A DNA stretch of 64,000 nucleotides from a bacterium (GCA_037127795.1 JBAXXQ010000001.1:252274-316273), one strand, 5' to 3'; shown: positions 2,121 through 34,522, counted from the first letter of the stretch. Notes: generated by a model not told the origin, from the letters alone. Numbers and translations are program-made.

Positions 2121-2609
2121 ATGAGAAAAAAACCTTTTTGGGTTACTGAACGTGATAAACGTTCTTTAAAAAGTGACCATATCAACAAAGTTTTAGGAGA
2201 AAAAAATGTTATTCATAGAAAAAAATCTGATATTGTACATTCAGAAAAAATCATGACAAAACATCATCGGAGACCTCGCGCTCTTGATGGAAGTAATTTT
2301 CCATCAAATATTTCCATGATTTCAAATGAGATCCATAAGGCCTGGACTCTTATTATGGGTGATATGAGTGCGGAGCAAATTTGTAATCATATAAATATAC
2401 ATTTTAAACCTAGAAGTGCTACGGTTATATGTATTTTTATTAATGGGCATCGTTGTAAAAAAGCTGGTGCACCTGGGACCCATGATGAAGCAAAGATTTC
2501 TTATGCATGGAGAATTTTATTTAAGGATTGTAGAAGTTTTAAAAGTAAAATTGATTTTATCAACAGTACCTTACTTGACCCAAGCTATCATCTGTACATC
2601 AGGTATTAA
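2121..2609 (+). CDS. Small HNH (His-Me finger)-like protein of the degenerate, Cys-less type
   Basis: Motif KHH-RRP-RAL-DG-SNFPSN...NEIHKAWTLIMGDMSAEQI resembles the small HNH family (KHHIIPRSRGG...N...HxAWHxLFGNxTPEE). Confidence 0.4.
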   Translation: MRKKPFWVTERDKRSLKSDHINKVLGEKNVIHRKKSDIVHSEKIMTKHHRRPRALDGSNFPSNISMISNEIHKAWTLIMGDMSAEQICNHINIHFKPRSATVICIFINGHRCKKAGAPGTHDEAKISYAWRILFKDCRSFKSKIDFINSTLLDPSYHLYIRY

Positions 2610-2613
2610 TAAA

Positions 2614-2645
2614 ATCCCACCAGACGTGTGTTTGGTGGGATTTTT
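2614..2645 (+). terminator. Rho-independent terminator
   Basis: atcccaccagac-gtgtg-tttggtgggat hairpin plus T-tract. It lies inside the 5' extension of ORF 2628, which argues for the later start at 2661. Confidence 0.5.
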
Positions 2646-2660
2646 ATATATACTATACCT

Positions 2661-3707
2661 ATGGAAACAACAATTAGAAAAACTATTGGTATATGTGGAG
2701 TGGTCGTAGGGTTTGGGGCAATGCTCTATGTTTTATTTATTGCAAAAACTATTTTGTTGTATCTCGTCGTTGCTATCATGCTCGCTATAGCAATATATCC
2801 GCTCGTTTCTCGTATTGAAAAAATACTACACGTGCGAAAAACACTCGCTGTCATACTTTCATATATTATTTTAGGGGTACTAGTTGGTCTTATTATTGGA
2901 GAGGTTATTGTACCACTTGCACACCAAGGGACTTCGTTCATTCGCAATATTCCTACTGTGTGGAGTACGTTTTTGCAAAATCCTCACGTCTTGGAATTGG
3001 TGACTCGGTATCATTTAGAAAATAGTCTCGCGCAACTCTCAAATCAGACATCAGGAATATTGCTTGGTGGAGGAGGATCTATTGTTGTTATTACAGGAAG
3101 TATTATTGCGCAAATAACAGCGACTACTATAGTATTGGTTTTGACATTTTTATTACAAATTGAAGGAGAAAATATTTGGCATTCACTACTTGGTTTTCTC
3201 ACAGAAAAAGATGCGGCAAATGCAAGACGTATCGGAGCAAAAATTACTAAAGCAATCAGTGGGTTTGTTTCAGGAAATTTGTTTATCAGTCTCATTGCGG
3301 GGACAGTAACATTCTTTACGTTGTGGCTACTCAAAGTACCCTATGCATTTGCGCTTGCGGGGCTTGTCGCGGTATTTGATCTTATCCCGCTTATTGGCGC
3401 CTCTATCGCAACTATTGCTATCGGGCTTGTCGCACTTTCAAAAGGACTTTTTGTGGCAATTCTTGCGGTGGGCATTATCTTGATATATCAGTTTGTTGAA
3501 GGGCATTTTATACAACCAATTGTGTATTCAAAATCTATCAATCTCTCTGCGTTGATAATTGTTATTGCTAGTGTGTTTGGTGCAGAGCTTGGAGGTATAC
3601 TCGGTATCTTGATGGCTATACCAGTAGCGGCTGTTATTCAAATAATTTGTATTGAGACATACGAATTTTTTGCAAATAGAAAAGTGCATACAGAGGTTGT
3701 AGGGTAA
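2661..3707 (+). CDS. AI-2E family transporter (PerM/UPF0118-like permease)
   Basis: ~350 aa polytopic membrane protein with conserved Gly-rich loop and C-terminal helices typical of the AI-2E family; start set at METTIRK after the upstream terminator. Confidence 0.6.
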   Translation: METTIRKTIGICGVVVGFGAMLYVLFIAKTILLYLVVAIMLAIAIYPLVSRIEKILHVRKTLAVILSYIILGVLVGLIIGEVIVPLAHQGTSFIRNIPTVWSTFLQNPHVLELVTRYHLENSLAQLSNQTSGILLGGGGSIVVITGSIIAQITATTIVLVLTFLLQIEGENIWHSLLGFLTEKDAANARRIGAKITKAISGFVSGNLFISLIAGTVTFFTLWLLKVPYAFALAGLVAVFDLIPLIGASIATIAIGLVALSKGLFVAILAVGIILIYQFVEGHFIQPIVYSKSINLSALIIVIASVFGAELGGILGILMAIPVAAVIQIICIETYEFFANRKVHTEVVG

Positions 3708-3765
3708 AAAAAATGATTTATTGACATTTCAATATTTTAAAGTAGTATTACAAAAAATATTGTAA

Positions 3766-4254
3766 ATGAAAAAAACGAAAAAAGTGTGCGTAATTGCACT
3801 ATCTTTTGGTATGCGTAGTCTTACCGAAAATAGAAGAGATGAATACGGTATTAGTAATTATTCTATTGCACAAGTTGCGATGGGATATAACCTTCCTATT
3901 ATTTCTCAGTGGGAAATTTCGAGATTGTTATCTATCGAAAAAGTTACACCTGTTCTTTCTGTGGAGTCAAAAAGAGGTAAATATCTTGATTCTCGAGATG
4001 TACTCATTGCGGCAAAAAACTTCATGGATCAAAACGGTTTTACTCATGCGGTATTGGTCGGACATCATGCACATCTACCAAGGGTGCGTATGATAGCTGA
4101 ATCAATGAAAATTGATTTGGAGAGAGATCTTGATAATTATTGGTGGATTCCTTATGATAATTTTTCTACACAGTGGTGGACCAGAACGTGGTATTTTTGG
4201 TGGCTTCGTGAACCGTTGGTATATATTCATCATCTAACTAAAGGGTGGATATAA
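3766..4254 (+). CDS. DUF218 / YdcF-ElyC-SanA-like protein
   Basis: AVLVGHHAHLPRVRMIAESM resembles the DUF218 core (VLVTSxxHMxRA). Confidence 0.45.
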   Translation: MKKTKKVCVIALSFGMRSLTENRRDEYGISNYSIAQVAMGYNLPIISQWEISRLLSIEKVTPVLSVESKRGKYLDSRDVLIAAKNFMDQNGFTHAVLVGHHAHLPRVRMIAESMKIDLERDLDNYWWIPYDNFSTQWWTRTWYFWWLREPLVYIHHLTKGWI

Positions 4255-5016: not shown

Positions 5017-6093
5017 ATGCGTATAGAAAATGAAATAAAACTTGATTATAGTGATGTGTTGTTGCGACCAAAAAGAAGTACTCTTGAATCTCGTAAAGAA
5101 GTAGAGCTTGAGCGAACTATGGCATTTTATCATTCATCCAAAACATGGACAGGTATTCCTATTATGGCGGCAAATATGGCAACGTGTGGGACATTCGATA
5201 TGGCTCGTGCACTCGCGCCACACAAAATGATTACGACATTTCATAAATACTATACTGTCGCAGACTACACAGAATTCTTTTCTTCTTTTAATAATCCTGA
5301 CTACATTGCATACACGCTCGGTATACGCGATGAAGATATTGCAAAATTGCGAGAAATGATAGACACCAAGCTGATATACAATTTTTCTTTTATTTGTATC
5401 GATGTACCCAATGGTTATTTGGAACGATTTTTAGAAGCAATAAAATTGGTACGTTCATTGTGTCCTGATCATATTATTATTGCTGGTAATGTTGTAACAA
5501 ATGAAATGACTGAAGAGATAATTCTCTCTGGTGCAGATATTGTAAAGGTAGGTATTGGCCCAGGATCTGTGTGTACTACTCGTCGTATGACGGGTGTCGG
5601 ATATCCGCAACTTTCTGCGGTTATAGAATGTGCTGATGCGGCGCACGGTATCTCAAATGGGCGTGGCGGATACGGACTCGTGATTGCAGACGGCGGACAA
5701 CAATACCCTTCATGTATTGCAAAAGCGTTTTGTGGGGGAGCAGACTTTAATATGGCAGGGTCACTATTTTCTGGTTTTGATGAAAGTGCGGGGAATGTGA
5801 TAGAAAAAGATGGGAAAAAGTTTAAAGAATATTTTGGTTCATCATCAAATAAAGCATTGCAAGATTTTTATGGTAAAAAAGATGCACACCGAGCTTCAGA
5901 AGGACGCTTTGTATTGATGCCATACAAGGGTGGTAGTGTAAATGTTTTTATACAAGATTTGTTCGGCTCACTTCGTAGTACAGGTACCTATATTGGTGCA
6001 AAACGACTCAAAGAATTTCCAAAACGTGCGACATTTATACAAGTGCACCACCAACTTACTACCTATTTAGAAAAATACGATATCGGAGAATAG
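5017..6093 (+). CDS. guaC: GMP reductase (IMPDH/GMPR family, no CBS insert)
   Basis: Near-colinear match to E. coli GuaC: MRIE..L.F.DVL.RPKRSTL.SR..VELER, GIGPGSVCTTR, GVGYPQLSAVIECADAAHG, catalytic Cys loop. Confidence 0.8.
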   Translation: MRIENEIKLDYSDVLLRPKRSTLESRKEVELERTMAFYHSSKTWTGIPIMAANMATCGTFDMARALAPHKMITTFHKYYTVADYTEFFSSFNNPDYIAYTLGIRDEDIAKLREMIDTKLIYNFSFICIDVPNGYLERFLEAIKLVRSLCPDHIIIAGNVVTNEMTEEIILSGADIVKVGIGPGSVCTTRRMTGVGYPQLSAVIECADAAHGISNGRGGYGLVIADGGQQYPSCIAKAFCGGADFNMAGSLFSGFDESAGNVIEKDGKKFKEYFGSSSNKALQDFYGKKDAHRASEGRFVLMPYKGGSVNVFIQDLFGSLRSTGTYIGAKRLKEFPKRATFIQVHHQLTTYLEKYDIGE

Positions 6094-6133
6094 TGAGGTG
6101 CTATATATAGATTTTGTGCTATACTAAGCCCCT

Positions 6134-7546
6134 ATGAAATTATTTTCCAGAAAAACAAAAATTATCGCAACCATTGGCCCGGGGTCAGAATCAAAAGAAA
6201 TGTTCGCAAAACTTATTCACGCAGGGGTGAATGTAGCGCGTACCAATATGAGTCATGATGATCACGCAGGGCACACCAAGCGTATCAAAACTATTCGTGC
6301 TGTTTCAAAAAAAGAAGGAGTACCAGTAGCTATCTTGCAAGATCTTTCAGGACCAAAAATCCGTATTGGAGACTTTGCACAAGGACCTGTTGAGCTCGTA
6401 CCAGGAAAGCAATTTATTCTTTCAGGAACTCCTTGTGAAGGAGACGCAACAAAAGTATTTTTCAATTACCCAGATATTCGTCGCGATCTCAAGGTAGGAC
6501 AAGTGATCATGCTTGATGATGGAAAAAAGAAACTCGTAGTAACAAAAATTGCAGGAGATGATATCATAACAAAAGTTGTTGTCGGTGGTACAACAAAATC
6601 TCGTCGTGGGGTGAACCTCCCAGGTGCATACCTTTCTATTTCTGCACTCACAGACAAAGACAAAAAAGATCTCGCACTCGGTCTTGAGCTTGGTGTAGAT
6701 ATTATTGCATTGTCATTTGTGCGTACCGCAAAAGATATTGAAGAGCTTCGTGGTTTGATAAAAAAAGCAAAAGGTAATCAACTCATTGTTGCAAAGATTG
6801 AGACAGAAGAAGCAATTGCAAATATTGATGAAATTATTGCAGCAACAGATGCAGTTATGGTTGCTCGTGGAGATCTCGCTGTAGAGATTGGTCCAGAACG
6901 TGTTCCTGCTATTCAAAAAACTATTATAAAAAAATGTAATGATCTTGGTAAGCCGGTTATTGTTGCAACACAAATGCTCGAATCAATGATTCAAAGTCCA
7001 GTACCTACTCGTGCTGAAGTTTCAGACGTTGCGAATGCAATTTTTGATGGTGCAGATGCAGTCATGCTTTCAGAAGAAACAGCACTCGGTGCATATCCAG
7101 TAGAAGCAGTAACTACTATGCATCATGTTGCGCTCGATATTGAAGCACACATTGGGACACACCGTAGATTCCGTGTTCGTCATGACGATATTGTAGACTC
7201 TATTAGTTCTTCTGTAGTACACAACGCTGAAGACGCACATGCTCGTGCTATTGTTGCGCTTACTTCGAGTGGATTCACTCCTCGTATGATTGCTCGATAC
7301 AAGCCACAACAACCAATCATTGTACTTACTAGTTCAGAGCTTGTTGCTCGCCAAGTAATGCTTTCATATGGTTGTTTCCCAATTGTAGAAAAGAAATTCA
7401 AAGATATTTCTCAAGTTATGAAGGGGGTACATACATACTTGGAGCAAAAAGATTTGATCAATAAAAAAGATATCGTTATTCTATCAGCGGGGACTCCATG
7501 GGGTGTTTCTGGTGGTACAAACATGCTCGCAGTGCTTTCTCAATAG
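6134..7546 (+). CDS. pyk: Pyruvate kinase
   Basis: KTKIIATIGPGSES, NVARTNMSHDDH, MVARGDLAVEIG and C-terminal domain; 470 aa. Confidence 0.85.
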   Translation: MKLFSRKTKIIATIGPGSESKEMFAKLIHAGVNVARTNMSHDDHAGHTKRIKTIRAVSKKEGVPVAILQDLSGPKIRIGDFAQGPVELVPGKQFILSGTPCEGDATKVFFNYPDIRRDLKVGQVIMLDDGKKKLVVTKIAGDDIITKVVVGGTTKSRRGVNLPGAYLSISALTDKDKKDLALGLELGVDIIALSFVRTAKDIEELRGLIKKAKGNQLIVAKIETEEAIANIDEIIAATDAVMVARGDLAVEIGPERVPAIQKTIIKKCNDLGKPVIVATQMLESMIQSPVPTRAEVSDVANAIFDGADAVMLSEETALGAYPVEAVTTMHHVALDIEAHIGTHRRFRVRHDDIVDSISSSVVHNAEDAHARAIVALTSSGFTPRMIARYKPQQPIIVLTSSELVARQVMLSYGCFPIVEKKFKDISQVMKGVHTYLEQKDLINKKDIVILSAGTPWGVSGGTNMLAVLSQ

Positions 7547-7563
7547 TGGTATACTAGAGAGGT

Positions 7564-7920
7564 ATGAATATCATAATAAAATCAACAAACATGGAGCTTA
7601 CTCCGGCGATTAAGGATTATGCAGAAAAGCGTATCTCAAAAGCAATTGTAAAATATGTCACTGATGCCGCAGATCTTTCTATAGAAGTTGCAAAGACTAC
7701 CAATCATCACAAAAACGGTGATGTATTTATGGCAGAAACAAATGTCACTACTCCACTCGGTACACAATATCGCGCAGTGTCTGAAAAACCAGATCTCTAC
7801 GAAGCGATAGATGATGTCCGTGATACATTGGTACGTGAATTAAATAACTCAAAAGATAAAAAAGAAAATCTCTGGAGACGAAGCTCTCGCGCAATCAAAA
7901 AGATGGTACGAAAGTGGTAG
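7564..7920 (+). CDS. hpf: Ribosome hibernation promoting factor (HPF/RaiA, short form)
   Basis: N-terminus M.I.I.S.N.ELTPAI.DYAEKRISK with the beta-alpha-beta-beta-beta-alpha HPF signature; ~118 aa. Confidence 0.7.
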   Translation: MNIIIKSTNMELTPAIKDYAEKRISKAIVKYVTDAADLSIEVAKTTNHHKNGDVFMAETNVTTPLGTQYRAVSEKPDLYEAIDDVRDTLVRELNNSKDKKENLWRRSSRAIKKMVRKW

Positions 7921-7944
7921 TATTACGATAGTAAAAATAATAAG

Positions 7945-7983
7945 CATAGAGTATACTGTATGTATCTCTATGCTTTTATTTTT
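7945..7983 (+). terminator. Hairpin terminator after hpf (overlaps the start codon of the next gene)
   Basis: aagcatagag...ctctatgctt hairpin followed by ttattttttg. Confidence 0.35.
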
Positions 7984-10900
7984 TGTTCGACACAAGAAGA
8001 CTTTTTTTGCGCTCACATTTGTGTTTCTTTTTGGTGCAACAGTGTCTTTTGCGAATCCTCCTGTAGGTGGCTATGACCCTGGTACTATCCTTGATCCAGA
8101 TTGTGCACCAGGTAGTACAGACTGTACAGTAAATATAAATAATAAAATTAGTGCAGGAAATGGGGTTGAATTTGTCGGGCAAGCAATACAAGTCAAACTC
8201 GATGGAGCAAGTCTTTATAAATCAAATACGGGGTTAAAAATTTCTGATGGGTATATTGGACAAAGTTCTATTACTACTGTCGGGACTATTATTGCGGGGC
8301 ACTGGCATGGCGATGTGATAGATATTGCGCATGGTGGTACTGGGCTTGGCGCAACACCACAAAACGGAGAATTCCTTATCGGTAATGGTACTGGATACGA
8401 TTTGGTAAATCTTGCTGGGGCTGATGGTGTTGTTATTACAAATTCAGGAAGTACTGTGACTATTGGTCTTGGTACTAGTAATATACCAGTTATAACGAGT
8501 GTTTCTGGTACTGACTATATTCCAATCTATCAAACCACTAGTCCTGATGTTCGTAAAAAAATCACCTATAATGATTTGTTTTCTGGTGTTTTAGGGTCTT
8601 TGAAATATCAGGGTACATGGGATCCTGGTACAAACACACCTGCTATAGCAGATAGTGATTGTAATAGTTCTGCAAAAGGTAATTTTTATATTGTAGGTGC
8701 TTCAGGTAATAGACATATTGGTAGTGAATTTAGTTGGGAGTCTGGTGACTGGCTTATTTGTAAGGGGACTGTTTGGGAAGAGGTTGAAAAAACAAATAAT
8801 ATTGATTCTGTATTTGGTCGTATGGGAAGTGTTGTTGCTATGAATGGGGACTATACCGCATCACAAATCACTAATGTACCTTTTGGTAGTATTAGTTCTA
8901 TTACAGTGCAAAATGCTATTAATGAACTTGCGACAGAAAAAGAGCCAGTGATTGTTCCAGGACTTGCAAATGAATATTGGCGAGGAGATAAAACATGGCA
9001 AACATTGGATACTTCAAATGTTTCAGAGCATCCAGCAAGATTGTATTTTACTAATGCTCGCGCGGTAACAGCACTTACCGGGCAAAATCTTTCTATTTTT
9101 AATAACAATGTGGGATACAATTCTGGTACAGGTGCAGTAGGGCAAATTCCTTTTTGGAATGGTACAAATACTATAACAGGTGATACAGGGCTTGTTTGGG
9201 ATAATACTGATAAACAGCTTGTTATTGGTGGTGGGTCAAACTTCGCATTCTCTACACCATCTGCGGTGACTTTTAATATTGGTGGAAATGTCGATACGTT
9301 TTTTCAGGCAAATATTCAAAATCAGTCAAATGGTGCAAACGCATCAACTGATTGGATTGCAACATCTGACAATGGAAATGAGCTCGCAAACTATGTAGAT
9401 ATGGGAATTAATAGTTCTGGGTACAATACACCATCATTCAATATTACCGGAGTAAATGATGCATATTTATATAGTGCTGGAAATGATTTTGCGATCGGTA
9501 ATGCATCAATAGGAAAATCTTTAAAATTCTTTACTGGTGGAACAACTACTGCAAATCAGCGTTTAGTTATAGATGGTACAGGTGATGTAGTTTTTACACC
9601 AACATCTTCGTCTGCGACAACCTCATCATCTTCATTATCGTTTAATTCGACGTATGCGTTGACGGCTGCAAATACTGCAGTAACCACAGGGACTGTGTCG
9701 GCATTGGTAACAGCTCAGGGTGAGGTGGTCGGAAGTAGTATTACAAACGGGGTATTTAATGCGAGTGGACACAAATTGAGCTCTGCGGTGACATGGCCTA
9801 CAGTGCTTACTCCGACGTATTTTGATGAATATGATATTGCTGCGGGTGCAGGGTATTCACCAGTGATTCAATCTATTTCTATTGATACCGCTGTTACCGG
9901 AGGAAGTAATCAGCTTATTGGAGATTTGCGATATTCAACAGATGGAGGAAATACTTTTACATCTGCTGGGTCTGTAAAAAATTTCCCATTAACCTCTGGA
10001 TCGTATTTAACATTTTCATATACAGGTCTTTCTATTTCTGTTCCTAGTAATACTACTATTATATTTAGAGTATTTATATATGCGTCAGGAGTGGTGACAT
10101 CATCTCGTTCGGTGTATATGCGTAATATGCAAATTAATGGACAGATTGGTACTTCTACTGGATCTGTAAAAGGGGTAAGTATTGCAGGTAATTATACTGC
10201 ATCTGCAAGTAACCACGTGCTTAGTGCTTTGTACATAAATGGTACCTATAATGCCGCTGGGTATACTGGAGTAAAAAATTATGATTTGTATCAAGCAAAT
10301 GCGGCCGCAAGTAATTATTTTGCAGGAGTGGTAGGTATTGGGAATCTCAATCCGACATACATGCTCGATGTAGGAAGTAGTAGTGTCTCTGGTATTGTCG
10401 GGCGTTTTACGAATGCAACAGGGTCTTGTACGATATCTCCGACAACAACATCACTCTCATGTTCTTCAGATATAAATCTTAAGAAAAATATTGTCGTACT
10501 TGCAGACAATACACTCTTTACGCTCAGCACTATAACTACAGCACCAACAGCTACTACATTGGATAAAATAATGTCCCTTACCCCAGTGCAATATAATTGG
10601 AAAACAGAACAAGATACCGACCCAAAACACACCGGATTTATCGCGCAACAAGTAGAGCAAATATTCCCAGATCTCGTACTTACTGATCCAGAGACAAATC
10701 TCAAATCTGTAAACTATATGGGCTTTGCGCCATATCTTGTACAAGCGGTACAAGAGATAAATGTTACTATAAAAAATCTTTCTTCATTGGATACTGGAAA
10801 TATAAATTCTCTCGGCTCGCTCATAAAACAATTTCTTGCTGATTCAAAAAATAATATAGAAGATTTGTATGCAAAAAATATCCATAGTAGTAATCAAATT

Positions 10901-11044
10901 TGTATCAATAGTACTTGTATCAATGAAGATCAACTCAAACAAATGTTGAACAATACTACTCCGGTACAGCAATCAGTAGTAGATATTTCTATACAAGACC
11001 CTGCTATACCAGCAGTAATACCTGATACGAATTCTACCCAATAA
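7970..11044 (+). CDS. Giant secreted tail-fibre-like protein with C-terminal intramolecular chaperone / auto-processing domain (peptidase S74-like), paralog 1
   Basis: Signal peptide; Gly/Thr/Ser/Asn-rich body; C-terminal SCSSDINLKKNIV...LTPVQYNWK...HTGFIAQQVEQIFPDLV matches the endosialidase/tail-fibre chaperone motif (S-D-x-x-L-K-x-N-I ... GhIAQ-V); conserved CxxxxC-DQLKxML tail. Confidence 0.7.
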   Translation: MLLFFVRHKKTFFALTFVFLFGATVSFANPPVGGYDPGTILDPDCAPGSTDCTVNINNKISAGNGVEFVGQAIQVKLDGASLYKSNTGLKISDGYIGQSSITTVGTIIAGHWHGDVIDIAHGGTGLGATPQNGEFLIGNGTGYDLVNLAGADGVVITNSGSTVTIGLGTSNIPVITSVSGTDYIPIYQTTSPDVRKKITYNDLFSGVLGSLKYQGTWDPGTNTPAIADSDCNSSAKGNFYIVGASGNRHIGSEFSWESGDWLICKGTVWEEVEKTNNIDSVFGRMGSVVAMNGDYTASQITNVPFGSISSITVQNAINELATEKEPVIVPGLANEYWRGDKTWQTLDTSNVSEHPARLYFTNARAVTALTGQNLSIFNNNVGYNSGTGAVGQIPFWNGTNTITGDTGLVWDNTDKQLVIGGGSNFAFSTPSAVTFNIGGNVDTFFQANIQNQSNGANASTDWIATSDNGNELANYVDMGINSSGYNTPSFNITGVNDAYLYSAGNDFAIGNASIGKSLKFFTGGTTTANQRLVIDGTGDVVFTPTSSSATTSSSSLSFNSTYALTAANTAVTTGTVSALVTAQGEVVGSSITNGVFNASGHKLSSAVTWPTVLTPTYFDEYDIAAGAGYSPVIQSISIDTAVTGGSNQLIGDLRYSTDGGNTFTSAGSVKNFPLTSGSYLTFSYTGLSISVPSNTTIIFRVFIYASGVVTSSRSVYMRNMQINGQIGTSTGSVKGVSIAGNYTASASNHVLSALYINGTYNAAGYTGVKNYDLYQANAAASNYFAGVVGIGNLNPTYMLDVGSSSVSGIVGRFTNATGSCTISPTTTSLSCSSDINLKKNIVVLADNTLFTLSTITTAPTATTLDKIMSLTPVQYNWKTEQDTDPKHTGFIAQQVEQIFPDLVLTDPETNLKSVNYMGFAPYLVQAVQEINVTIKNLSSLDTGNINSLGSLIKQFLADSKNNIEDLYAKNIHSSNQICINSTCINEDQLKQMLNNTTPVQQSVVDISIQDPAIPAVIPDTNSTQ

Positions 11045-11049
11045 AACCT

Positions 11050-11274
11050 TTTGTTTTGTAGTCTTTACATAGTATACTTATAGCGTATATGCGCCACTTT
11101 TTTATCACACACAAGAAAACATTCTTCGCAATGTTATTTGTGATACTTTTTAGTACTACTATCTCTTTTGCTGACCGTGCAAACCCCTACACTGCAGGAG
11201 AAACTCTTGATCCAGACTGTGCGCCAGGAAGTGGGGTGAATTGTACGGTACATATTGCTGGTGGAGGAGGAACT
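11050..11274 (+). repeat. Copy A of a ~225 bp identical cassette (promoter + 5' end of gene)
   Basis: Sequence from tttgttttgtagtctttacatag... to ...gctggtggaggaggaact is identical to 14127-14354 except for a 3 nt GGA indel. Confidence 0.85.
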
Positions 11275-14121
11275 CAGACATTGCAAGATGTAACAACTGC
11301 AGGGAATTCTATAACTAATGATATTGGGAATCTTGCTGATAATACATGGAGGATAAATAGTAATGGTGTTGCAAGATTTGGACATCCTATAACTGGTACT
11401 GGAGTAGAGATAGACCCGGATGGAACTATACAATCAGTTGGTGGTAGTTATTCTACGTTTTTTACCGTGTATCCAGGTGGAGGGCAAATTTTAATGGGAG
11501 ATTTTGATGAAACTAGTGGTAAAACAAAATATTTATTAGATGATGTAGCACAAACCCAAACCTTCAATGCTAATAATGGGTTCTTATTTACAGGTGTTAA
11601 TTATCCAGGAGGGTTTGCAAGTATCAACCCAGATACTAATGAAATATTGTTAGGAGAATTCAACACATCAAATGATAATACACATATAGATATATTAAAT
11701 AATTCAGGACATACAGGTAATTATATAAGAACATATTCAAATCATGGGGAATTTAATAATTTAGGTGAAGGGATTAATTTAGATTTTGAACACAACCTAT
11801 TTCAATTAGGTGTATACAGTCAAGAAGGTCTTCAAACCTATATCTCTTTAGATGACAATGCTCAGACTCAATCTTTTAATGCTAGTAATGGGTTTAATTT
11901 TACAGGAAATAATTTTTCTTATGCAAATAGTGGTGGAGAGTATTTAATTAATGCAAACTTTAATAATCGAACTATTGTAATAGGAGATAATCAGCGTATT
12001 GCTGGTAATGGTAATAATTTAACTATTGATGATAATAACAATCTTATTACTTTAGGTAATATATCTTTAAGTGCTTCAATTGAATTAAACACATGGTCAG
12101 GTATAAATACATATTATGCTTATAGGGGGCATAATTTTACAGGAGGTGGTACATTGTCTACTGATGGTGATATAAGTGTAGGAAATAATATTGGAAACAC
12201 TGTTACAGGAGGATGGAGTATAGATAATGCAGGCGCAGCTCATTTTGCAGCAGGGAGCTTCAGTGTAGAAGGTAATGGTAATATTAATAGTGATGGTCAA
12301 TTAAGCCTTGCGGGTGGTAATGCCGGAATATTTAGTGATGGAAGTTTTAGTACTTATAATAACTCACTTGCTGCTAAAACAATAAGTTACAATGGGCATT
12401 TGTTACAAGTAACAGATAGTGTTTATGGTGGTAATTTTTTTAATGTAACAGAGGATGGTACTTTATCAATATCTCAATCTTCAAGTGGCAACAACACATT
12501 ATACATAAATGGTAGTGGTCAGTTCTATATAGCAGATAAGCAGAATGGTTACCAAACATTTAATGTGGGGTATGATTATTCTTATTTTCAAGATAAATAT
12601 TATGGTACTGGTATAGATGCTCAATATGCAAGATTTGAAAAAGATAATATATTCTTTCAAGATGTAACTGGTACACAGAAATATTTTACAGCTGATACTT
12701 TTGGTATACAAACAACTGATCCGATATCTGGAGTTAATGTGTTAGGTCCTAAATGGCTGTTAGGAAGATATAATACTAGTACTCAATCTTTAAATGTTTC
12801 TGTTGATGGTACACAATATAATATTCCTACGCAAACAATTTCGGTAAATGTATCAAATAATTCCGTATACTCTAGTTTATTAGGAAGTTCTAATTTGGCA
12901 TATTCTAATGTTTTAGGAAATAACGCAGGTCTTGGGGCAAGTGGTACATATAATAATTTTTTAGGACCACTTAGTGGCTTTGGAACAAGTGCCTCTTATT
13001 CAAATTTTATTGGAAACGGTGCTGGAGGGTTTGCGACAAATGCATCTCACTCCAACTTTATCGGAGATGGAGCTGGAGCCTTCTCATCATCTTCATCATA
13101 TTCTACCTTTATAGGTTTTCATGCTGGTGCTGATAGTATTTTTAATCCTTTAAATGGACAAAACAATATTATTATTGGTACAAATATAACTCTTCCTCCG
13201 AGTACAAGTAATGCTATTAATATAGGCGGTGTTTTGTTCGGTCTTAATACTCAAAATGATTATAGTGCCAATACTGCTTATTTTACCGCTGTTACCTCTG
13301 GCAAAATAGGTATTGCTAATGCTAATCCGTATTATACCCTCGACGTAGGTAATTCGTCGGTATCAGGAATAGTAGCTCAGTTCACCAACTCATCAGGTAG
13401 TTGTACTATCTCCCCAACAGGTTCAGCAGTTTCTTGTTCTTCCGACATCAACCTCAAGAAAAATATTGTTGCACTCAAGGATAATACACTCTTCACTCTC
13501 AACACTATCACTACAGCACCAACAGCTACCACACTAGACAAACTCATGACACTTACTCCAGTAAGTTACAACTGGAAAACAGAAAACGATACTGATAATA
13601 AACACACTGGATTCATCGCACAACAAGTAGAACAAGTATTCCCAGATCTAGTAACTACAGATCCAACCACTAATCTCAAATCTCTCAACTATATGGGCTT
13701 TGCACCGTATATAGTACAAGCAATACAAGAAATGAATTTCAAGATGACTGCAATCATTCCTGATGATCTTGATGCGACTGCGTATGCAAAAATAAAAAGT
13801 TTCTTGCATCAAGTTGCAACTGATGGAGAAATTACTTTCAATACTTTGAAAACAACACTTATCACTAGTGATGAAATTCGTGCAAATAAAACAACAACCA
13901 ACCAGCTCTGTGTCGGCACCACTTGTATCGATAGTGATCAGCTTGCAAAAATGCTCCAGTCTGCAAATTCACAAAATACAGCGCCAGGTACTCTTGTAGC
14001 AACTCCAGATACTACACAAACTCCAGCAACACCAGACCCTATACTAGCTCCTACTCCTGACCCAGCCCCAAGTACACCTGCTGTCACCGACACTACGACA
14101 CCTACTGTTTCTACACAATAA
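11089..14121 (+). CDS. Giant secreted tail-fibre-like protein with C-terminal S74-like intramolecular chaperone domain, paralog 2
   Basis: Same architecture; first 62 codons and 44 nt upstream identical to paralog 3; Gly/Ala/Asn repeat block; SSDINLKKNIVAL...YNWK...HTGFIAQQVEQVFPDLV; Pro/Thr-rich C-tail. Confidence 0.7.
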   Translation: MRHFFITHKKTFFAMLFVILFSTTISFADRANPYTAGETLDPDCAPGSGVNCTVHIAGGGGTQTLQDVTTAGNSITNDIGNLADNTWRINSNGVARFGHPITGTGVEIDPDGTIQSVGGSYSTFFTVYPGGGQILMGDFDETSGKTKYLLDDVAQTQTFNANNGFLFTGVNYPGGFASINPDTNEILLGEFNTSNDNTHIDILNNSGHTGNYIRTYSNHGEFNNLGEGINLDFEHNLFQLGVYSQEGLQTYISLDDNAQTQSFNASNGFNFTGNNFSYANSGGEYLINANFNNRTIVIGDNQRIAGNGNNLTIDDNNNLITLGNISLSASIELNTWSGINTYYAYRGHNFTGGGTLSTDGDISVGNNIGNTVTGGWSIDNAGAAHFAAGSFSVEGNGNINSDGQLSLAGGNAGIFSDGSFSTYNNSLAAKTISYNGHLLQVTDSVYGGNFFNVTEDGTLSISQSSSGNNTLYINGSGQFYIADKQNGYQTFNVGYDYSYFQDKYYGTGIDAQYARFEKDNIFFQDVTGTQKYFTADTFGIQTTDPISGVNVLGPKWLLGRYNTSTQSLNVSVDGTQYNIPTQTISVNVSNNSVYSSLLGSSNLAYSNVLGNNAGLGASGTYNNFLGPLSGFGTSASYSNFIGNGAGGFATNASHSNFIGDGAGAFSSSSSYSTFIGFHAGADSIFNPLNGQNNIIIGTNITLPPSTSNAINIGGVLFGLNTQNDYSANTAYFTAVTSGKIGIANANPYYTLDVGNSSVSGIVAQFTNSSGSCTISPTGSAVSCSSDINLKKNIVALKDNTLFTLNTITTAPTATTLDKLMTLTPVSYNWKTENDTDNKHTGFIAQQVEQVFPDLVTTDPTTNLKSLNYMGFAPYIVQAIQEMNFKMTAIIPDDLDATAYAKIKSFLHQVATDGEITFNTLKTTLITSDEIRANKTTTNQLCVGTTCIDSDQLAKMLQSANSQNTAPGTLVATPDTTQTPATPDPILAPTPDPAPSTPAVTDTTTPTVSTQ

Positions 14122-14126
14122 AATTG

Positions 14127-14354
14127 TTTGTTTTGTAGTCTTTACATAGTATACTTATAGCGTATATGCGCCACTTTTTTATCACACACAAGAAAACATT
14201 CTTCGCAATGTTATTTGTGATACTTTTTAGTACTACTATCTCTTTTGCTGACCGTGCAAACCCCTACACTGCAGGAGAAACTCTTGATCCAGACTGTGCG
14301 CCAGGAAGTGGGGTGAATTGTACGGTACATATTGCTGGTGGAGGAGGAGGAACT
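14127..14354 (+). repeat. Copy B of the ~225 bp identical cassette
   Basis: Direct comparison with 11050-11274. Confidence 0.85.
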
Positions 14355-17300
14355 AATGGGTGGGATAGTATGTTGGCGCAAAATCAAGTACAGACGCAGG
14401 ATAGAACTATTGATGTTAATAATAAATATTTACGATTTAGTAATATAAATGAAGTTGATTTTTCTGGGGTCTCTGGTCAAAACACTATTGAAATTGTGGA
14501 AGGGCAGGTAAATATGGGAGATATTGGTGGGGTTGGAAATGGTGTTTATTTTTCAGTTGATAGTCCTAATAATAAAATTTATTCATTGGCTGGAGGAAAT
14601 CCAGCTGGATTGAATCTTGATTTTAATAATCAAATATATGAATTGGGTGATTATGGTCACAATAATGATGCTACAACATTATCAGTAGATAATACTCATG
14701 ATATTATTTCTACTTATAGTGGTTCAAATAATTATAAAAATTCAGGTATTTATTTAGATTATGGAAATGCTGATTTTTATTATGGTGATTATGGTCACAA
14801 TCAAAATGGTACAGCAATTTTACTTGATGATCTAGCTCAAACCCAAACCTTCAATGCTAATAATGGGTTTACGTTTAATACTGACAATGGAGGATTTATT
14901 GTATCAGGTAGCAACAGTTACCATTATCAAGATGGGTTATTAGGGGCAATAATATCAGGTAGAATAGCATTTATAGGGGATAATTCTGGCGACTTTAATA
15001 GTACTAGTTTATTGGTTAATGACAATACTGGACAACAATTTATTGATTTTAATGCGCAAAACGGTTTCCAATTCACAGGAGGTTCTATAAGTAGTGATGG
15101 TAATATCTTACTAACAAACGGGGGTACTATATCTGCAAATGCAAATGATTTACAACTAATAAATAATGGTAATTCAAACTATATAAATGTAGGCGCAGGT
15201 GGTAATATAGAGGCACATTCAACAACTGGTGGGACGATAGCATTACAAGATGATTTAAATGGTGCAAAAATATTAATTAACAATTATGCGGGTGATATTG
15301 AATTAACATCTACTTTAGGAGCACCAATAAAAATGTTTGGAGGTAGTGTTCAAACTGATGGTGATATAGAAGGTGGTGGCAAGATAACCACACCTAATTC
15401 AACATTATTTTCAGATGGTTCTGTAGGACTTCCTCATGCTGCTATTAATGTAGACGGGGGTGGTTATTTATCTAATGGTAATTTTAGTTGGGATGCAGGT
15501 GGAAATATAACTACTTATGGTGATTTAAGTTTAATGGGGGGTAATGCGGGGATATTTTCAAATGGACATATATTTTCGGGGGTAGATGGGTTTAATAATT
15601 TTGATGCAACGCAATCTGGTTCACTTACAATTGCTTCAATTAGTGATGGAACAGCAACATTATTTACTGGTGGCGATGGAGATTTTTACATAGCAGATAA
15701 AACAAGTGGTAACCAAACATTCTATGTAGATGTAGCTGGAATGCAAACAACCGATGCAGTAGCGGGGGCGGGAACACTAAGCCCTGCGTGGAAGCTTGGA
15801 AGTTATAATAGCACTTCTGAATCTGTCGCTGTGTCTATTGGGGGTACACTATACAATCTCTCTACGCATGGTGTCGCACTCGATAGTAACAATAGCTTTA
15901 TTGTCGGAGGGGCTGGATCTTTTGGTGCAAATATAAATTCTGTATATGTAGGATTTGCAGCTGGGACTGGTGCAAATGATGCAAACAATTCAAACTTCCT
16001 TGGTGCAAATGCAGGGCTCAATGCGCAATTTGCAAACCATTCAAATTTCTTTGGTGCAGATGCTGGTAATGGTGCAATCAATGCAAGTGTCTCAAACTTC
16101 ATTGGGTACCAGGCGGGGTATGGGGCTGTGAATGCTACGGGCTCAAACTTCTTGGGGCAAGATGCCGGTCATGGTGCAACATATGCAACCAATTCAAACT
16201 TCTTTGGATTCCAGGCTGGATATGGTGCGCTCGGTAGTAATAGCTCTCCATTTAATAGTAACTTCTTTGGGTATCAAGCAGGGTATGGTGATTACAATCT
16301 CACCGACTCAAACTTCTTTGGATACCAAGCAGGATATATTGCAAATACTGCTATAAGTTCAAACTTCTTTGGAAATAGCGCAGGGTATGGAGCAACTAAT
16401 GCTGCGTATGCAAACTTTATGGGGTTTTATGCTGGGTATGGAGCTGGTAATGCAAACGGCTCAAACTTCTTTGGACGCAATGCAGGAGATTCTGCAAGTA
16501 ATGCATCATATTCAAACTTTATTGGATTTGCAGCAGGTAAGTATGCAACAAATGCTCAAATTTCAAACTTTATTGGAATCGGCGCAGGTCTTGATGCAAC
16601 AAATGCAAGTGAGTCAAATTTCTTTGGAGATAATACTGGGCGTGGTGCAACCAATGCTTCAAATGCAATATTTATAGGTGCAAGTGCTGGGTATAATGAT
16701 GCTGTAAATAATGTTTCAACTGGAGGGTTTTCAATTCTTATAGGGCCACATACAAATACTGGTGGCTATTCAAACAGTATTGCAATAGGTGGCTCTGCTA
16801 CCAATACCGCAACAAATCAATTTATGATCGGCTCAACTTCATTCCCAATCAATACTACTGTCATCAAAGGTGCAAGTACACAATGTACTATCACCACAGG
16901 TACAGGTATTGCATGTTCGTCTGATGCAAGTCTCAAGAAAAATATTGTAGCCGTACAAGATGGTACGCTTGCAAAAGTACTTGCACTCCGCCCGGTAACA
17001 TACAACTGGAATGATGAACAAGATACTGATCCGACACATATAGGATTCATTGCGCAAGAAGTAGAAACAGTATTCCCACAAGTAGTATCTATAGACCCTG
17101 CAACACATCTCAGACTGCTCTCTACGACCTCACTTATTCCTTATACTATCAAAGCTATACAAGAGATGCATATTACTATTACGTCTGTAATTCCAGATAC
17201 TCTTGATAGTACTGCGTATGGCAAAATAAAAGAATTTTTGCGAGAAATTGCTACAGAAGGGAAGGCTGTAGTAGATATTGTACAAACACATACACTCTGT

Positions 17301-17528
17301 GTAGACGATGTGTGTGTCACCCGTGATCAGTTCAAAAACATGGTCCAGCAAGCAGGTCAGCAACAAAGTGCTCCGAGTGTTGTTGTGCCTGTAGCACCTA
17401 GTACAACACCAGTAACCACTCCAACACCAGTTTCATCAGACGCTACTGTAGTAGACCCAGTTGTTACCCCAACACCAAGTCCTGTGGTAGATACTACTCC
17501 TGCTCCTGCATCTTCTGAAAATCAGTAA
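14166..17528 (+). CDS. Giant secreted tail-fibre-like protein with long SNFxG-xAG-GA-NA repeat array and C-terminal S74-like chaperone domain, paralog 3
   Basis: Identical N-terminus to paralog 2; ~17 tandem 14-16 aa Gly/Ala/Asn repeats; CSSDASLKKNIVAV...YNWN...HIGFIAQEVETVFPQV; Pro/Thr/Val-rich tail. Confidence 0.7.
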   Translation: MRHFFITHKKTFFAMLFVILFSTTISFADRANPYTAGETLDPDCAPGSGVNCTVHIAGGGGGTNGWDSMLAQNQVQTQDRTIDVNNKYLRFSNINEVDFSGVSGQNTIEIVEGQVNMGDIGGVGNGVYFSVDSPNNKIYSLAGGNPAGLNLDFNNQIYELGDYGHNNDATTLSVDNTHDIISTYSGSNNYKNSGIYLDYGNADFYYGDYGHNQNGTAILLDDLAQTQTFNANNGFTFNTDNGGFIVSGSNSYHYQDGLLGAIISGRIAFIGDNSGDFNSTSLLVNDNTGQQFIDFNAQNGFQFTGGSISSDGNILLTNGGTISANANDLQLINNGNSNYINVGAGGNIEAHSTTGGTIALQDDLNGAKILINNYAGDIELTSTLGAPIKMFGGSVQTDGDIEGGGKITTPNSTLFSDGSVGLPHAAINVDGGGYLSNGNFSWDAGGNITTYGDLSLMGGNAGIFSNGHIFSGVDGFNNFDATQSGSLTIASISDGTATLFTGGDGDFYIADKTSGNQTFYVDVAGMQTTDAVAGAGTLSPAWKLGSYNSTSESVAVSIGGTLYNLSTHGVALDSNNSFIVGGAGSFGANINSVYVGFAAGTGANDANNSNFLGANAGLNAQFANHSNFFGADAGNGAINASVSNFIGYQAGYGAVNATGSNFLGQDAGHGATYATNSNFFGFQAGYGALGSNSSPFNSNFFGYQAGYGDYNLTDSNFFGYQAGYIANTAISSNFFGNSAGYGATNAAYANFMGFYAGYGAGNANGSNFFGRNAGDSASNASYSNFIGFAAGKYATNAQISNFIGIGAGLDATNASESNFFGDNTGRGATNASNAIFIGASAGYNDAVNNVSTGGFSILIGPHTNTGGYSNSIAIGGSATNTATNQFMIGSTSFPINTTVIKGASTQCTITTGTGIACSSDASLKKNIVAVQDGTLAKVLALRPVTYNWNDEQDTDPTHIGFIAQEVETVFPQVVSIDPATHLRLLSTTSLIPYTIKAIQEMHITITSVIPDTLDSTAYGKIKEFLREIATEGKAVVDIVQTHTLCVDDVCVTRDQFKNMVQQAGQQQSAPSVVVPVAPSTTPVTTPTPVSSDATVVDPVVTPTPSPVVDTTPAPASSENQ

Positions 17529-18345
17529 AAGATATTCGTTTGCCATTTTCTGGAATAACAGTATCTATAATAAAATTGCCGCCTACGAAGTGTGCTTCTA
17601 CTATTTTTACTCGCTTAGTAATGCCTTCTTTTTTTGTATAAAAATATAATCCTGGCCAGCCAAAGTATGCGCGGTATTTTCTATCGAGTTCTATAGGATC
17701 ATCATCAAGATTGATTTCTCCGTGTTCTTTGGTGATTTTTTTTGTCTTACTTATATGTCGTGTGTCTTGTGGTATTGGGTGAGTATTATGTAAAAAAATA
17801 TCTTGGATAGTCTGAGGGAGTATCGCTACTGCGAGCGTGTTTAATTTTGCACGAAGGCTTCCTGTCGTGTCGTCTGGTGCTATAGCAAGCTCTTGTTGTG
17901 CAATGATATCTCCTGCATCGAGCTCATATACCATTTGTTGTATTGCAATACCAGTGACAGCATCGCCATGCAAAATAGCACTTTCTACAGGGGTTGCGCC
18001 GCGGTATTTGGGGAGGAGGGAATAGTGCACATTTATAGTGCCATACGTAGGAAGTTGTATAAGTGCTTCAGGGAGGATTTTGCCATATGCGACAACAACA
18101 AAAAGATCAAAATGTTCTTTTTGTAATTGCTCTATATATTCTGGTGTAATACGTTCTGGTTGATATACTGGGATATGCTCGTAGTCGCCCCAGTGTTTGG
18201 GAGCAGGAGACTCGATATGCATTCCACGACCTACTGGTCTATCTGGGTTGGTAATAATTGCACTAGGAGTAAGTCCCGCGTTTTTTAAACTATCTAAAAA
18301 GTCTACGGTAAATGCTGGTGTTCCAAAGAATGCTATTTTTTTCAT
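17494..18345 (-). CDS. fmt: Methionyl-tRNA formyltransferase
   Basis: MKKIAFFGTP...; formyl-transferase N-domain (HYSLLPKYRG) and C-terminal domain; def-fmt operon context; 3' end overlaps the giant gene 3' end by 35 nt on the opposite strand. Confidence 0.85.
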   Translation of the reverse strand: MKKIAFFGTPAFTVDFLDSLKNAGLTPSAIITNPDRPVGRGMHIESPAPKHWGDYEHIPVYQPERITPEYIEQLQKEHFDLFVVVAYGKILPEALIQLPTYGTINVHYSLLPKYRGATPVESAILHGDAVTGIAIQQMVYELDAGDIIAQQELAIAPDDTTGSLRAKLNTLAVAILPQTIQDIFLHNTHPIPQDTRHISKTKKITKEHGEINLDDDPIELDRKYRAYFGWPGLYFYTKKEGITKRVKIVEAHFVGGNFIIDTVIPENGKRISFTDFQKMQEQE

Positions 18346-18842
18346 TATTTTGTGTGATGAGGTGCTGGTACATCTTCGAGATTACTTGCTTTGTCTATAA
18401 AAAGGACACCAACAAGGTGGTCCATTTCATGTTGAAAAATTTGTGCGAGTAGTCCGCGACCACTCAATACAAATTCATTACCAGCAAAATTTGTTGCACG
18501 AATAGTTGCTGTTTCTGAACGTTTTACTTTGCCGTATTTCCAGCGTACAGAAAGACATCCTTCAGATACTACTACTTTCTTTTTTCCTACACGGATAAAA
18601 GAAGGATTGATACAAACGATATCATTTTCTGCATCAGAAAAAATCTTTTTTGATATGACAAAAATTTGTTTACTTACTCCTATTTGTGGTGCAGCAATAG
18701 CAACACCGTCTTCTTCGTGAGAAAGCGCTTCGCTCATATCATTGAGTATTTTTTGCAGTGCGGGAGTATTGAATTCGTCGGCGCCTACTGGTGCTGCGTC
18801 GTGGCGCAATACAGGAGCTGGTTCTTGCAAGATAGGTTTCAT
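18345..18842 (-). CDS. def: Peptide deformylase
   Basis: Motifs EGCLS and HEMDHL (metal ligands). Confidence 0.85.
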   Translation of the reverse strand: MKPILQEPAPVLRHDAAPVGADEFNTPALQKILNDMSEALSHEEDGVAIAAPQIGVSKQIFVISKKIFSDAENDIVCINPSFIRVGKKKVVVSEGCLSVRWKYGKVKRSETATIRATNFAGNEFVLSGRGLLAQIFQHEMDHLVGVLFIDKASNLEDVPAPHHTK

Positions 18843-20704: not shown

Positions 20705-20782
20705 TGTAGGGCTAGTATAGCAAAAAAAGCTTTATAATACAAAATACAAGACAAAAACCCTTTTTTGGTGTTTACTATAGCT

Positions 20783-28466: not shown

Positions 28467-28824
28467 TTTATTTTTATTCATAACAGCTATACCAGCTTTT
28501 GCAAAAGGTCCAGCAGGAAGTGTTATAGGTATTCCTTGTGATGGAGTAAATTGTAACATTGAGGATATTTTTACCTTGATTAATAATCTCATAAAATTTG
28601 CTATTACAAAATTATTTTTCCCAATTTTTATTGTAGCTATTTTGTACATTGGATGGAGTTATCTTACCGCTGGTGGAGATACCAAGAAGGTTGCTAATGT
28701 AAAACAAATGGCTTGGCATATGTTTTTAGGGGTAATCCTTGTTCTTGCATCATGGCTTATTGTTAAAACAGTACTCGATGTACTAGGGGCAACAGATGCG
28801 GGGATGTTTTTGACAGGTAATTAA
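28429..28824 (+). CDS. VirB2/TrbC-like pilin-type protein 1 (signal peptide + two-helix hairpin)
   Basis: Sec signal (AIPAFA/KG), then two long hydrophobic helices separated by a TAGGDTKK loop; overlaps the SBP gene by 38 nt. Confidence 0.5.
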   Translation: MKHKIKFNLIFSSLFLFITAIPAFAKGPAGSVIGIPCDGVNCNIEDIFTLINNLIKFAITKLFFPIFIVAILYIGWSYLTAGGDTKKVANVKQMAWHMFLGVILVLASWLIVKTVLDVLGATDAGMFLTGN

Positions 28825-28840
28825 TGTATACTTATATTAT

Positions 28841-29323: not shown

Positions 29324-29324
29324 T

Positions 29325-30476: not shown

Positions 30477-30545
30477 ATTTGATATATAGGTGTGGTATAC
30501 TATAAGGGTACTAAATAATTAAAAGATAGTAATTAATTGTAATTT

Positions 30546-30926: not shown

Positions 30927-30940
30927 GCTACTACAATACT

Positions 30941-34446: not shown

Positions 34447-34522
34447 TGGTGCGCCTAGCAGGACTTGAACCTGCGACATTCTCCTTAAGAGGGAGCTGCT
34501 CTACCAACTGAGCTATAGGCGC
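34447..34522 (-). tRNA. tRNA-Lys (anticodon CTT), CCA encoded
   Basis: Reverse complement GCGCCTATAGCTCAGTTGGTAGAGC...CTCTTAA...GGTTCAAGTCCTGCTAGGCGCACCA folds into a cloverleaf. Confidence 0.8.

Follow-up and report, generated by a model that had tools for sequence, protein, structure and literature searches.

Probable recent gene conversion of the promoter region and N-terminal module between two tandem tail-fibre-like genes of a Paceibacterota-like genome

The DNA described here is a stretch of 64,000 nucleotides (nt) from a bacterium (GCA_037127795.1, JBAXXQ010000001.1:252274-316273), in the following called the window, in which positions are counted from the first letter. The gap between hpf, the gene of a ribosome hibernation factor, and fmt is occupied in the window by an array of three open reading frames (ORFs) on one strand, which were taken from the ORF list and the translation of the window and which are named g1, g2 and g3. 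Two of these genes, g2 and g3, share a segment of 222 identical nt covering the promoter region and the start of the coding region, and the origin of this identity is the subject of the present work. Each of the three genes appears to have its own TATACT promoter and to encode a Sec signal peptide, a Cys-loop module of approximately 33 amino acids (aa), a variable repeat-rich body and an S74 domain, and the label 'fibre' is reasonable for them by domain content. The record of g2 at the National Center for Biotechnology Information (NCBI) carries the name 'MAG: tail fiber domain-containing protein [bacterium]', MAG being a metagenome-assembled genome, and belongs to a contig of 580,599 bp. Named homologs of the GyrA protein at approximately 80–82% identity belong to Paceibacterota, Nomurabacteria or Minisyncoccia, and because of these homologs the organism is placed in the Patescibacteria (candidate phyla radiation, CPR) as a Paceibacterota-like MAG. 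The genes and the two copies of the identical tract are the following:

7970-11044, plus strand: g1, fibre paralog 1, 1024 aa, with signal peptide, Cys-loop module, variable body and C-terminal S74 domain
11089-14121, plus strand: g2, fibre paralog 2, 1010 aa (ORF list, translation, Pfam)
14166-17528, plus strand: g3, fibre paralog 3, 1120 aa (ORF list, translation, Pfam)
11050-11274, plus strand: tract copy A, 39 intergenic nt (promoter region) followed by codons 1-62 of g2 (exact match, BLAST alignment)
14127-14354, plus strand: tract copy B, 39 intergenic nt followed by codons 1-63 of g3, one GGA more than in copy A

Positions 11050-11271 and 14127-14348 form a maximal exact match of 222 nt with zero mismatches, which is followed by one extra GGA in the GGT(GGA)n run of g3 and then by ACT in both copies (to 11274 and 14354, respectively). 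This bears out what an earlier interpretation of the DNA made without database searches (the sequence-only reading) had stated, namely that the two segments are identical apart from a GGA indel. The tract starts 5 nt past the upstream stop codon and extends through codon 61 (codon 62 in g3), by which it includes the signal peptide and the Cys pair as had been proposed; however, only 39 of the 44 spacer nt and not all of them belong to it. The 5 nt right after the upstream stops differ between the copies (AATTG vs. AACCT). Of the 39-nt non-coding part the window contains exactly two copies, vs. 0.00 expected in shuffles. In the 18 nt upstream of the tract 14 of 18 positions match and the g1 and g2 proteins both end with ...STQ*, so that the ends of g1 and g2 are recognisably homologous. 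The two tract copies are direct repeats 3,077 bp apart. Codons 1-60 of g2 and g3 are identical throughout (60/60), and beyond the tract the 30-codon windows fall to 23–28% amino-acid identity, which confirms the sharp downstream divergence described before. In a codon alignment the nucleotide identity of g2 and g3 in the windows flanking the tract is 37–38%, and outside the tract only about half of the codons for the same amino acid use the same codon. Compared to g1, the tract region shows a nucleotide identity of 63–67%. The 3' boundary of the tract coincides with the (GGA)n Gly linker, at which the N-terminal module found throughout the protein family ends (profile positions 1-64). Following this boundary, the bodies of g2 and g3 are colinear at approximately 35% amino-acid identity and have internal motifs in common. 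A single other long exact match exists between the two genes:

11551-11582, partner 14838-14869, plus strand: second exact g2/g3 island, 32 nt, encoding the motif LLDD(V/L)AQTQTFNANNGF

This island reaches 92% over 51 nt within bodies that are otherwise approximately 35% identical, and it may be a further small patch of conversion or serve as an anchor for recombination. A contig of the same population (L020, Logan SRR12676973) ends inside the g3 copy of the island, at 14848.

The history of the tract can be judged by comparison to a sister genome (L014), the GyrA protein of which is 99% identical to that of the window and the housekeeping DNA about 89–98%. Here, the gene order is a g1-like 3' end, a single gene, named gX, and fmt. 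The orthologous tract in L014 is only 84% identical (30 of 39 non-coding and 153 of 183 coding nt), and the codon differences between window and L014 comprise 12 synonymous-only and 11 non-synonymous codons. Within the tract g2 and g3 are thus 100% identical to each other vs. 84% to L014, which contributes one outgroup copy only, as it has a single gene. Outside the tract, the head of g2 and the tail of g3 are each 79–83% identical to L014, and their mutual amino-acid identity is at most ~35%. L014 positions 3-777 are colinear with window positions 10592-11366 at 82.6% identity, a segment that runs from the end of g1 via spacer and tract into the g2-specific head (92 nt), and L014 positions 2123-3982 correspond colinearly, at 79%, to the tail of g3 (window 15720-17600). 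The intervening 1.3 kb of L014 is at the DNA level similar to neither g2 nor g3. On the protein level gX is composed as follows:

gX residues 1-95: 85% identical to g2
gX residues 95-555: 20–50% identical to either gene, with a 44-aa insertion in common with g2
gX residues about 560-1080: 80–97% identical to g3

The transition between g2-like and g3-like amino acids is located at the junction GIQTTD/AV, and by this pattern gX is a hybrid of a g2-like head and a g3-like tail. In two distant relatives with a GyrA identity of 82–84% (L016, 3216-4420; L023, 3266-4462), hpf abuts fmt and no fibre gene is present; the 9.6-kb stretch missing from both corresponds to window positions 7921-17493. The number of fibre genes at the hpf/fmt site is accordingly 0, at least 2 or 3 depending on the relative, and g1 to g3 form a fast-evolving, adhesin-like array, which is a lineage-specific insertion at this site. 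Two other Paceibacterota genomes contain syntenic single-copy members of the family, which differ in length (1366 vs. 918 aa). A scan of genome contigs yielded one relative only, a Saccharibacteria MAG, and a scan of metagenomes yielded 10 family loci, 0 of them with tandem copies. Because of the hybrid gene in L014 and the absence of fibre genes at the site in the distant relatives, we conclude that recombination remodels the array over evolutionary time and that the genes are mosaics of one another.

The 222-nt identity was probably caused by a gene conversion that took place recently between g2 and g3. A non-reciprocal homologous recombination event would have overwritten the promoter, the signal peptide and the N-terminal module of one of the paralogs, with a converted patch beginning 5 nt past the upstream stop codon and ending at the domain boundary formed by the Gly linker. 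The L014 ortholog differs including at 12 synonymous-only codons, showing that the tract is free to drift, and since the L014 tract is only 84% identical, selection at the nucleotide level can't explain an identity of 100% and the conversion would be much younger than the species split. The gene-conversion or recombination signature suggested by the sequence-only reading is upheld by these data, as non-coding and synonymous sites are homogenised as well and the L014 ortholog is only 84% identical. In the longer term, recombination at short conserved intragenic islands would give rise to hybrids, to copy-number changes and to a mosaic array. Occasional homologous recombination is sufficient for the data, and the conversion tract is an ordinary evolutionary event brought about by a well-known process.

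Several points weigh against gene conversion as the explanation. Among the relatives searched there is no second genome with two tract-bearing tandem genes, in which concerted evolution might show. Of the independent assemblies none spans a copy of the tract, with L013 stopping at 10658, L020 at 14848 and the scaffold of L014 in the g1-like gene. Moreover, the identity of the tract is read from an assembled contig, and the building of the consensus may have raised it slightly. One genome does not separate a conversion of the 5' end from a recent duplication followed by replacement of a body. Furthermore, for transcription start, secretion, cleavage and surface anchoring we infer the properties of the genes and proteins from sequence.

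Among the alternatives, the one that survives best, which we nevertheless regard as improbable, is a recent duplication of g2 (or of g3) after which one body past the Gly linker was replaced by a horizontally imported divergent allele. Middle parts are exchanged as a whole between close relatives, since that of gX resembles neither g2 nor g3 in its nucleotides though its flanks are 79–83% identical, and the different lengths of the syntenic Paceibacterota orthologs (1366 vs. 918 aa) and the varying copy number among relatives are in line with it. However, it needs at least two events vs. one for conversion, and the colinear bodies with ~35% amino-acid identity and shared motifs are as expected for old paralogs. 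In addition, the g2-like head and the g3-like tail in L014 imply that both types of bodies predate the identity of the tract.

A further alternative has to be considered with regard to the 3' ends of the genes. The sequence-only reading had put the last ~600 nt of all three paralogs at ~80% identity. This is overstated: g1 and g2 are 77–82% identical in their S74 core over ~270 nt only (10475-10744 vs. 13450-13719), whereas the S74 cores of g2/g3 and g1/g3 show about 62–69% and the final ~300 nt of the genes 37–61% identity. As the longest exact matches shared by the 3' ends measure only 14–20 nt, these ends are poor substrates for homologous recombination. This bears on a programmed or high-frequency cassette shuffling, in which the 5' tracts and the 3' chaperone ends would serve as anchors for swapping receptor-binding cores between expression sites; such swaps would happen inside a population and result in variation of fibres or host range. 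The conserved ends and variable middles seen throughout the family, the hybrid gene in L014 and the second exact island of 32 nt would fit such a system, and three assemblies break within the array, which is compatible with strain heterogeneity. Nevertheless, a programmed shuffling system is unlikely. A crossover between the tracts, being direct repeats, only deletes or duplicates the g2 body, and a core swap needs a second exchange, for which the 3' ends offer the short exact matches mentioned and 62–82% identity. All three genes are full-length and have promoter-like elements, so that there are no silent donor cassettes. In about 40 ORFs that were scanned, neither a recombinase nor an integrase, invertase or reverse transcriptase was detected, and the search for inverted repeats gave no relevant ones. 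Moreover, the sole recombinant seen is one between species of ~89% identity and not one within a population. The reshuffling envisaged by the sequence-only reading is hence supported on the evolutionary time scale by the L014 hybrid, but not as a core swap via the 5' tracts and the 3' ends.

Three known diversification systems were also considered and rejected. Silent cassettes of the pilE/pilS, vlsE or MgPa type do not match three complete ORFs, each with start codon, signal peptide and TATACT. A shufflon or an invertible promoter was dismissed, as the inverted pairs are weak (74–86% over 19–27 nt), none of them flank the tracts, and no recombinase is present in the scanned ORFs. Diversity-generating retroelements (DGRs) are characterised by a reverse transcriptase and a pair of template and variable repeats differing at adenines, the latter in the 3' part of the target. 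As the repeat described here is 100% identical, lies 5' in the genes and extends into non-coding DNA, a DGR was rejected; no DGR reverse transcriptase was found in the about 40 scanned ORFs, which did not cover every small ORF.

An artefact of assembly or polishing, by collapsed strain variants, a chimeric join via the shared repeat or smoothing of the consensus, is very unlikely. The source is a MAG, a repeat of 222 nt is longer than usual k-mers, and L013 and L020, which stem from the same population, as well as the L014 scaffold fragment within the array. However, each junction has its own 5-nt variant (AATTG vs. AACCT), the GGA indel separates the copies, and a direct repeat in two copies permits a single linear path using all segments. 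The L014 contig independently joins the g1-like end, the tract and the g2-like head; furthermore, L013 (GCA_964516085.1) matches positions 5695-10658 and L020 positions 14848-18713, both at 100%. Finally, purifying selection on the sequence, by which the tract would be a regulatory DNA or RNA element (leaderless initiation, regulator site), is hardly conceivable, and the comparison to L014 largely refutes it. In its favour, L014 has retained a 17-nt block around TATACT (11066-11082), and AGTATACT is kept as an invariant element upstream of all three paralogs. However, beyond this block the L014 tract differs at 35 of 222 positions, including the 12 synonymous-only codons, and g1 fills the same role at 63–67% identity.

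The gene conversion proposed above would have transferred a unit composed of a promoter and a secretion and N-terminal module, the elements of which are given here:

11073-11078 (g2) and 14150-14155 (g3), 10 nt before ATG, and 7952-7957 (g1), 12 nt before ATG, plus strand: most probable -10 element TATACT
11089-11172 (g2) and 14166-14249 (g3), plus strand: putative signal peptide coding region, aa 1-28, MRHFFITHKKTFFAMLFVILFSTTISFA (read from sequence)
11173-11271 (g2) and 14250-14351 (g3), plus strand: mature Cys-loop module, aa 29-61, ...YTAGETLDPDCAPGSGVNCTVHIAGGGG, ~33 residues
11260-11271, plus strand: (GGA)n Gly linker with which the Cys-loop module ends

The signal peptide was called by eye from the sequence and not by a predictor; in g2 it has a basic n-region (R2, H3, H8, K9, K10), a hydrophobic core of 14 residues and S-F-A at positions -3 to -1. 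The cysteines C44 and C52 are invariant across g1, g2 and g3, and the Cys-loop module would represent the cell-proximal docking end of the proteins. Neither Pfam nor NCBIfam contains a model matching the N-terminal module, and a word-index protein search with a 65-aa N-terminal alignment gave no match. In contrast, a HMMER profile of aa 1-65 identified 465 representative proteins at E<=1e-3, nearly always at their N-terminus. The module consensus is Ff..HKt...FL.lFS.tv.yAtPP.SPYtPGeTLDP.CAPGsTNCtV, in which the motif FFxxHK(K/R)T...SxA is kept across 138 family representatives and the Cys-loop is described across the family by TPPxSPYxPGETLDPxCAPGxxNC. Among the matches listed, 118 of 125 with a length of >=500 aa also have a C-terminal S74 domain. 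Since module and S74 domain are combined in these long representatives, conserved ends with a variable middle are the standard architecture of a large family and not peculiar to this locus; the architecture itself, which the sequence-only reading had emphasised, is real. The N-terminal module is in addition present at the head of giant proteins with LVIVD/Kelch beta-propellers (L005, L007). The material on the module family consists of the proteins P0008-P0156 and the loci L002, L005, L007, L011, L021 and L022. P0009 (4275 aa, 19 matched stretches) was set aside; it lacks the module motif and its single DPxC is not N-terminal.

Toward the C-terminus, the array proteins contain the S74 domain and, in g3, a repeat array:

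10466-10681 (g1), 13441-13656 (g2) and 16920-17087 (g3), plus strand: Peptidase_S74 chaperone core (Pfam, motif)
15968-16690, plus strand: 51-nt (17-aa) SNFFGxxAGxGAxNA tandem repeats, ~14 copies, in the g3 body

PF13884 (Peptidase_S74) matches all three proteins above its curated cut-off of 22 bits, with 53.9 bits in g1 (E=2.2e-14, aa 833-904), 54.1 bits in g2 (E=1.9e-14, aa 785-856) and 63.3 bits in g3 (E=2.6e-17, aa 919-974). At the start of the domain lies the motif CSSD(I/A)(N/S)LKKNI, containing S833/K838 in g1, S785/K790 in g2 (CSSDINLKKNI) and S919/K924 in g3, and [ST]DxxxK is found in 82 of 84 S74 domains of the family. The Ser and the Lys at +5 are taken by us as the catalytic dyad in analogy to S911/K916 of endoNF, and Ser785 is the predicted autocleavage site in g2 with Lys790 as its partner. 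The S74 domain would drive folding of a trimer and would then cleave itself at Ser785 (g2), and the products of g1 to g3 are probably secreted, trimeric, tail-fibre-like surface proteins, with presumed roles in anchoring and binding. A 12-sequence S74 profile matched in the PDB the tail-fibre chains 6F45 (8e-7) and 8JOV (2.5e-4) and the auto-processing domain of MYRF (7DC3; 0.0097); single-sequence PDB searches with the C-terminal domains gave no significant match. In NCBIfam there was no match for g1, g2 or g3, and faint YadA_head matches were seen on family members. PHROG tail-fibre families match the array proteins, and both PHROGs and tblastn against phage genomes reach the C-terminal part only, the matches to phage genomes being confined to the C-terminal 11–40% of the protein. 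In the Saccharibacteria relative, the contigs L001, L003 and L004 are 99.9% identical over 10.6 kb and diverge or end inside the equivalent repeat array (from 10657), which suggests variation of the repeat number or assembly breaks.

As to transcription and translation, the sequence-only reading had pointed to TTGTAG (11056-11061) and TATAGC (11079-11084) with a spacing of 17 nt as promoter. Both hexamers are present, but the conserved -10 element is TATACT, and TTGTAG is TTCTAA in L014. As the distance from the end of TATAGC to the ATG is 4 nt, this hexamer would let transcription start inside the ORF. Of 10 family loci in other genomes, 8 have TATACT at a distance of 7–12 nt upstream of the start. 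A -10-like hexamer TA[TCA]A[ACT]T ending 5–13 nt before the start precedes 22 of 57 window genes vs. 2.5 expected; the box is often extended to TGnTATACT, 6–12 nt before the start, with examples at 6114-6133, 7544-7563, 20705-20724 (minus strand) and 59375-59394. Shine-Dalgarno (SD)-like cores precede 4 of 57 window genes, with 3.4 expected by chance. These counts support an SD-less initiation, leaderless or with a very short leader, and the mRNAs of g1 to g3 would be leaderless or have a leader of at most 5 nt. The earlier proposal of a leaderless or SD-less translation is therefore consistent with SD cores at chance level and a -10 box near the start, but it describes a genome-wide and family-wide feature and not a property of the cassette. 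Leaderless-dominated genomes have been reported (Zheng et al., 2011, PMC3160421; GeneMarkS-2, PMC6028130); the likeness lies in the -10-like TAnnnT box a few nt before the starts and the absence of SD sequences in most genes, while the spacing of 6–12 nt in the window differs, so that many mRNAs may carry a leader of 0–5 nt. A literature search on leaderless initiation in Patescibacteria found no relevant paper. No intrinsic terminators are present within the 44-nt spacers. The TATACT of g1 lies between the arms of a 19-nt inverted repeat (7933-7951/7966-7984; complementarity 84%, loop of 14 nt), which also overlaps with the g1 start codon. A role as operator, as terminator of hpf or as 5' hairpin of the mRNA is conceivable for this repeat, which has no counterpart at g2 and g3.

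The array resembles several systems known from phages and pathogens. Phage tail fibres and tailspikes reportedly have a C-terminal intramolecular chaperone. Examples of this chaperone (Peptidase_S74) are K1F endoNF and T5 pb1. In common with S74 tail fibres and endosialidase tailspikes of phages, g1 to g3 have PF13884 above cut-off together with the Ser-x4-Lys motif, and they share with phage tail fibres a conserved attachment end, a variable repeat-rich body, an exchangeable chaperone and a mosaic evolution; the matches of PHROG tail-fibre families and of solved tail-fibre chains to the array proteins point in the same direction. Unlike tail fibres, however, g1 to g3 are located in a cellular genome among housekeeping genes, their surroundings contain no further phage genes, and their Sec signal peptide and Cys-loop module are absent from phage records. 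Because of the housekeeping neighbours and the lack of further phage genes, a phage or prophage origin of the array was rejected. In the lpl array of Staphylococcus aureus, tandem paralogs recombine at conserved intragenic segments, resulting in hybrids and copy-number change, and the conserved unit extends from the 3' end of one gene across the spacer into the 5' end of the gene that follows (Tsuru and Kobayashi, 2008; PMC2568036). The array is similar in being composed of tandem surface-protein paralogs, in the hybrid gX, in the copy-number change among genomes, and in a corresponding unit of 3' end, spacer and 5' end (L014 3-777 vs. window 10592-11366). It differs in that the lpl recombination site is a central conserved region, whereas the conserved parts of the array are both ends and small islands, and in that its hybrid is known from one comparison genome and from no multi-strain phylogeny.

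Adhesin paralogs homogenised by gene conversion are also represented by babA/babB of Helicobacter pylori and by opa of Neisseria. In babA/babB, near-identical 5' (and 3') segments surround divergent middle binding regions, comparable to the array, and non-reciprocal recombination leads to chimeras and to altered expression or binding. In contrast to the dispersed bab loci, in which slipped-strand phase variation is involved, the genes of the array are adjacent, all of them seem to be expressed, and the homogenisation is confined to the 5' segment.

The array is flanked by the genes of IMP dehydrogenase (IMPDH) and pyruvate kinase and by hpf on one side and by fmt, def, hisS and lepB (signal peptidase) on the other side, and the rest of the window contains gyrA, clpB, uvrABC, infB, tRNAs and further housekeeping genes. 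With such neighbours the locus is part of a cellular chromosome. At its 3' end, g3 overlaps with the convergently oriented fmt by 35 nt (17494-17528), and a comparable overlap of the g3 tail and fmt is found in L014 (3882-3910). Immediately upstream of hpf, L016 contains the gene of a large serine recombinase. In the window, a small-gene cluster at 28429-31315 has L014 counterparts with T4SS_pilin matches; the gene of a VirD4/TrwB-like coupling protein (59395-61281) is adjoined by a gene encoding a lamin-tail-domain protein (61285-62601). These three elements are components of the type IV secretion or DNA-uptake machinery of Patescibacteria. The sole Rfam matches within the window are tRNAs, namely a minus-strand cluster of Lys-CTT, Leu-TAG, Leu-TAA and Cys-GCA and a separate tRNA-Tyr (34447-35088 and 42149-42232).

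Patescibacteria presumably live attached to other microbes, and their attachment proteins are mostly uncharacterised. A literature search found no relevant paper on S74 or tail-fibre proteins in CPR/Patescibacteria. Next to the conversion itself, the more interesting by-products of this analysis are the large unannotated family of N-terminal modules and the near-leaderless gene starts, for which the locus provides a clean example of SD-less initiation in Patescibacteria as far as its sequence indicates. A far-reaching and rather doubtful extension would be that the cassette, i.e., the signal peptide FFxxHK(K/R)T...SxA and the Cys-loop docking module YxPGETLDPxCAPGxxNC, is a phylum-wide unannotated 'address' for tail-fibre-like adhesins of Patescibacteria and that the array is an actively recombining fibre-switching locus. 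If this were true, the 222-nt and 32-nt tracts together with the chaperone cores would let a population gain or lose fibre variants and thereby change to which host cells the episymbiont can attach. Independent of such switching, the fibre family shows here gene gain, hybrid formation and homogenisation of 5' ends among close relatives, and the locus offers candidate host-recognition determinants and a defined N-terminal module as a candidate signal for surface anchoring. It demonstrates for a large family of presumably secreted fibres with a tail-fibre chaperone an evolution by modular recombination, as it is known from the receptor-binding proteins of phages and the adhesins of pathogens.

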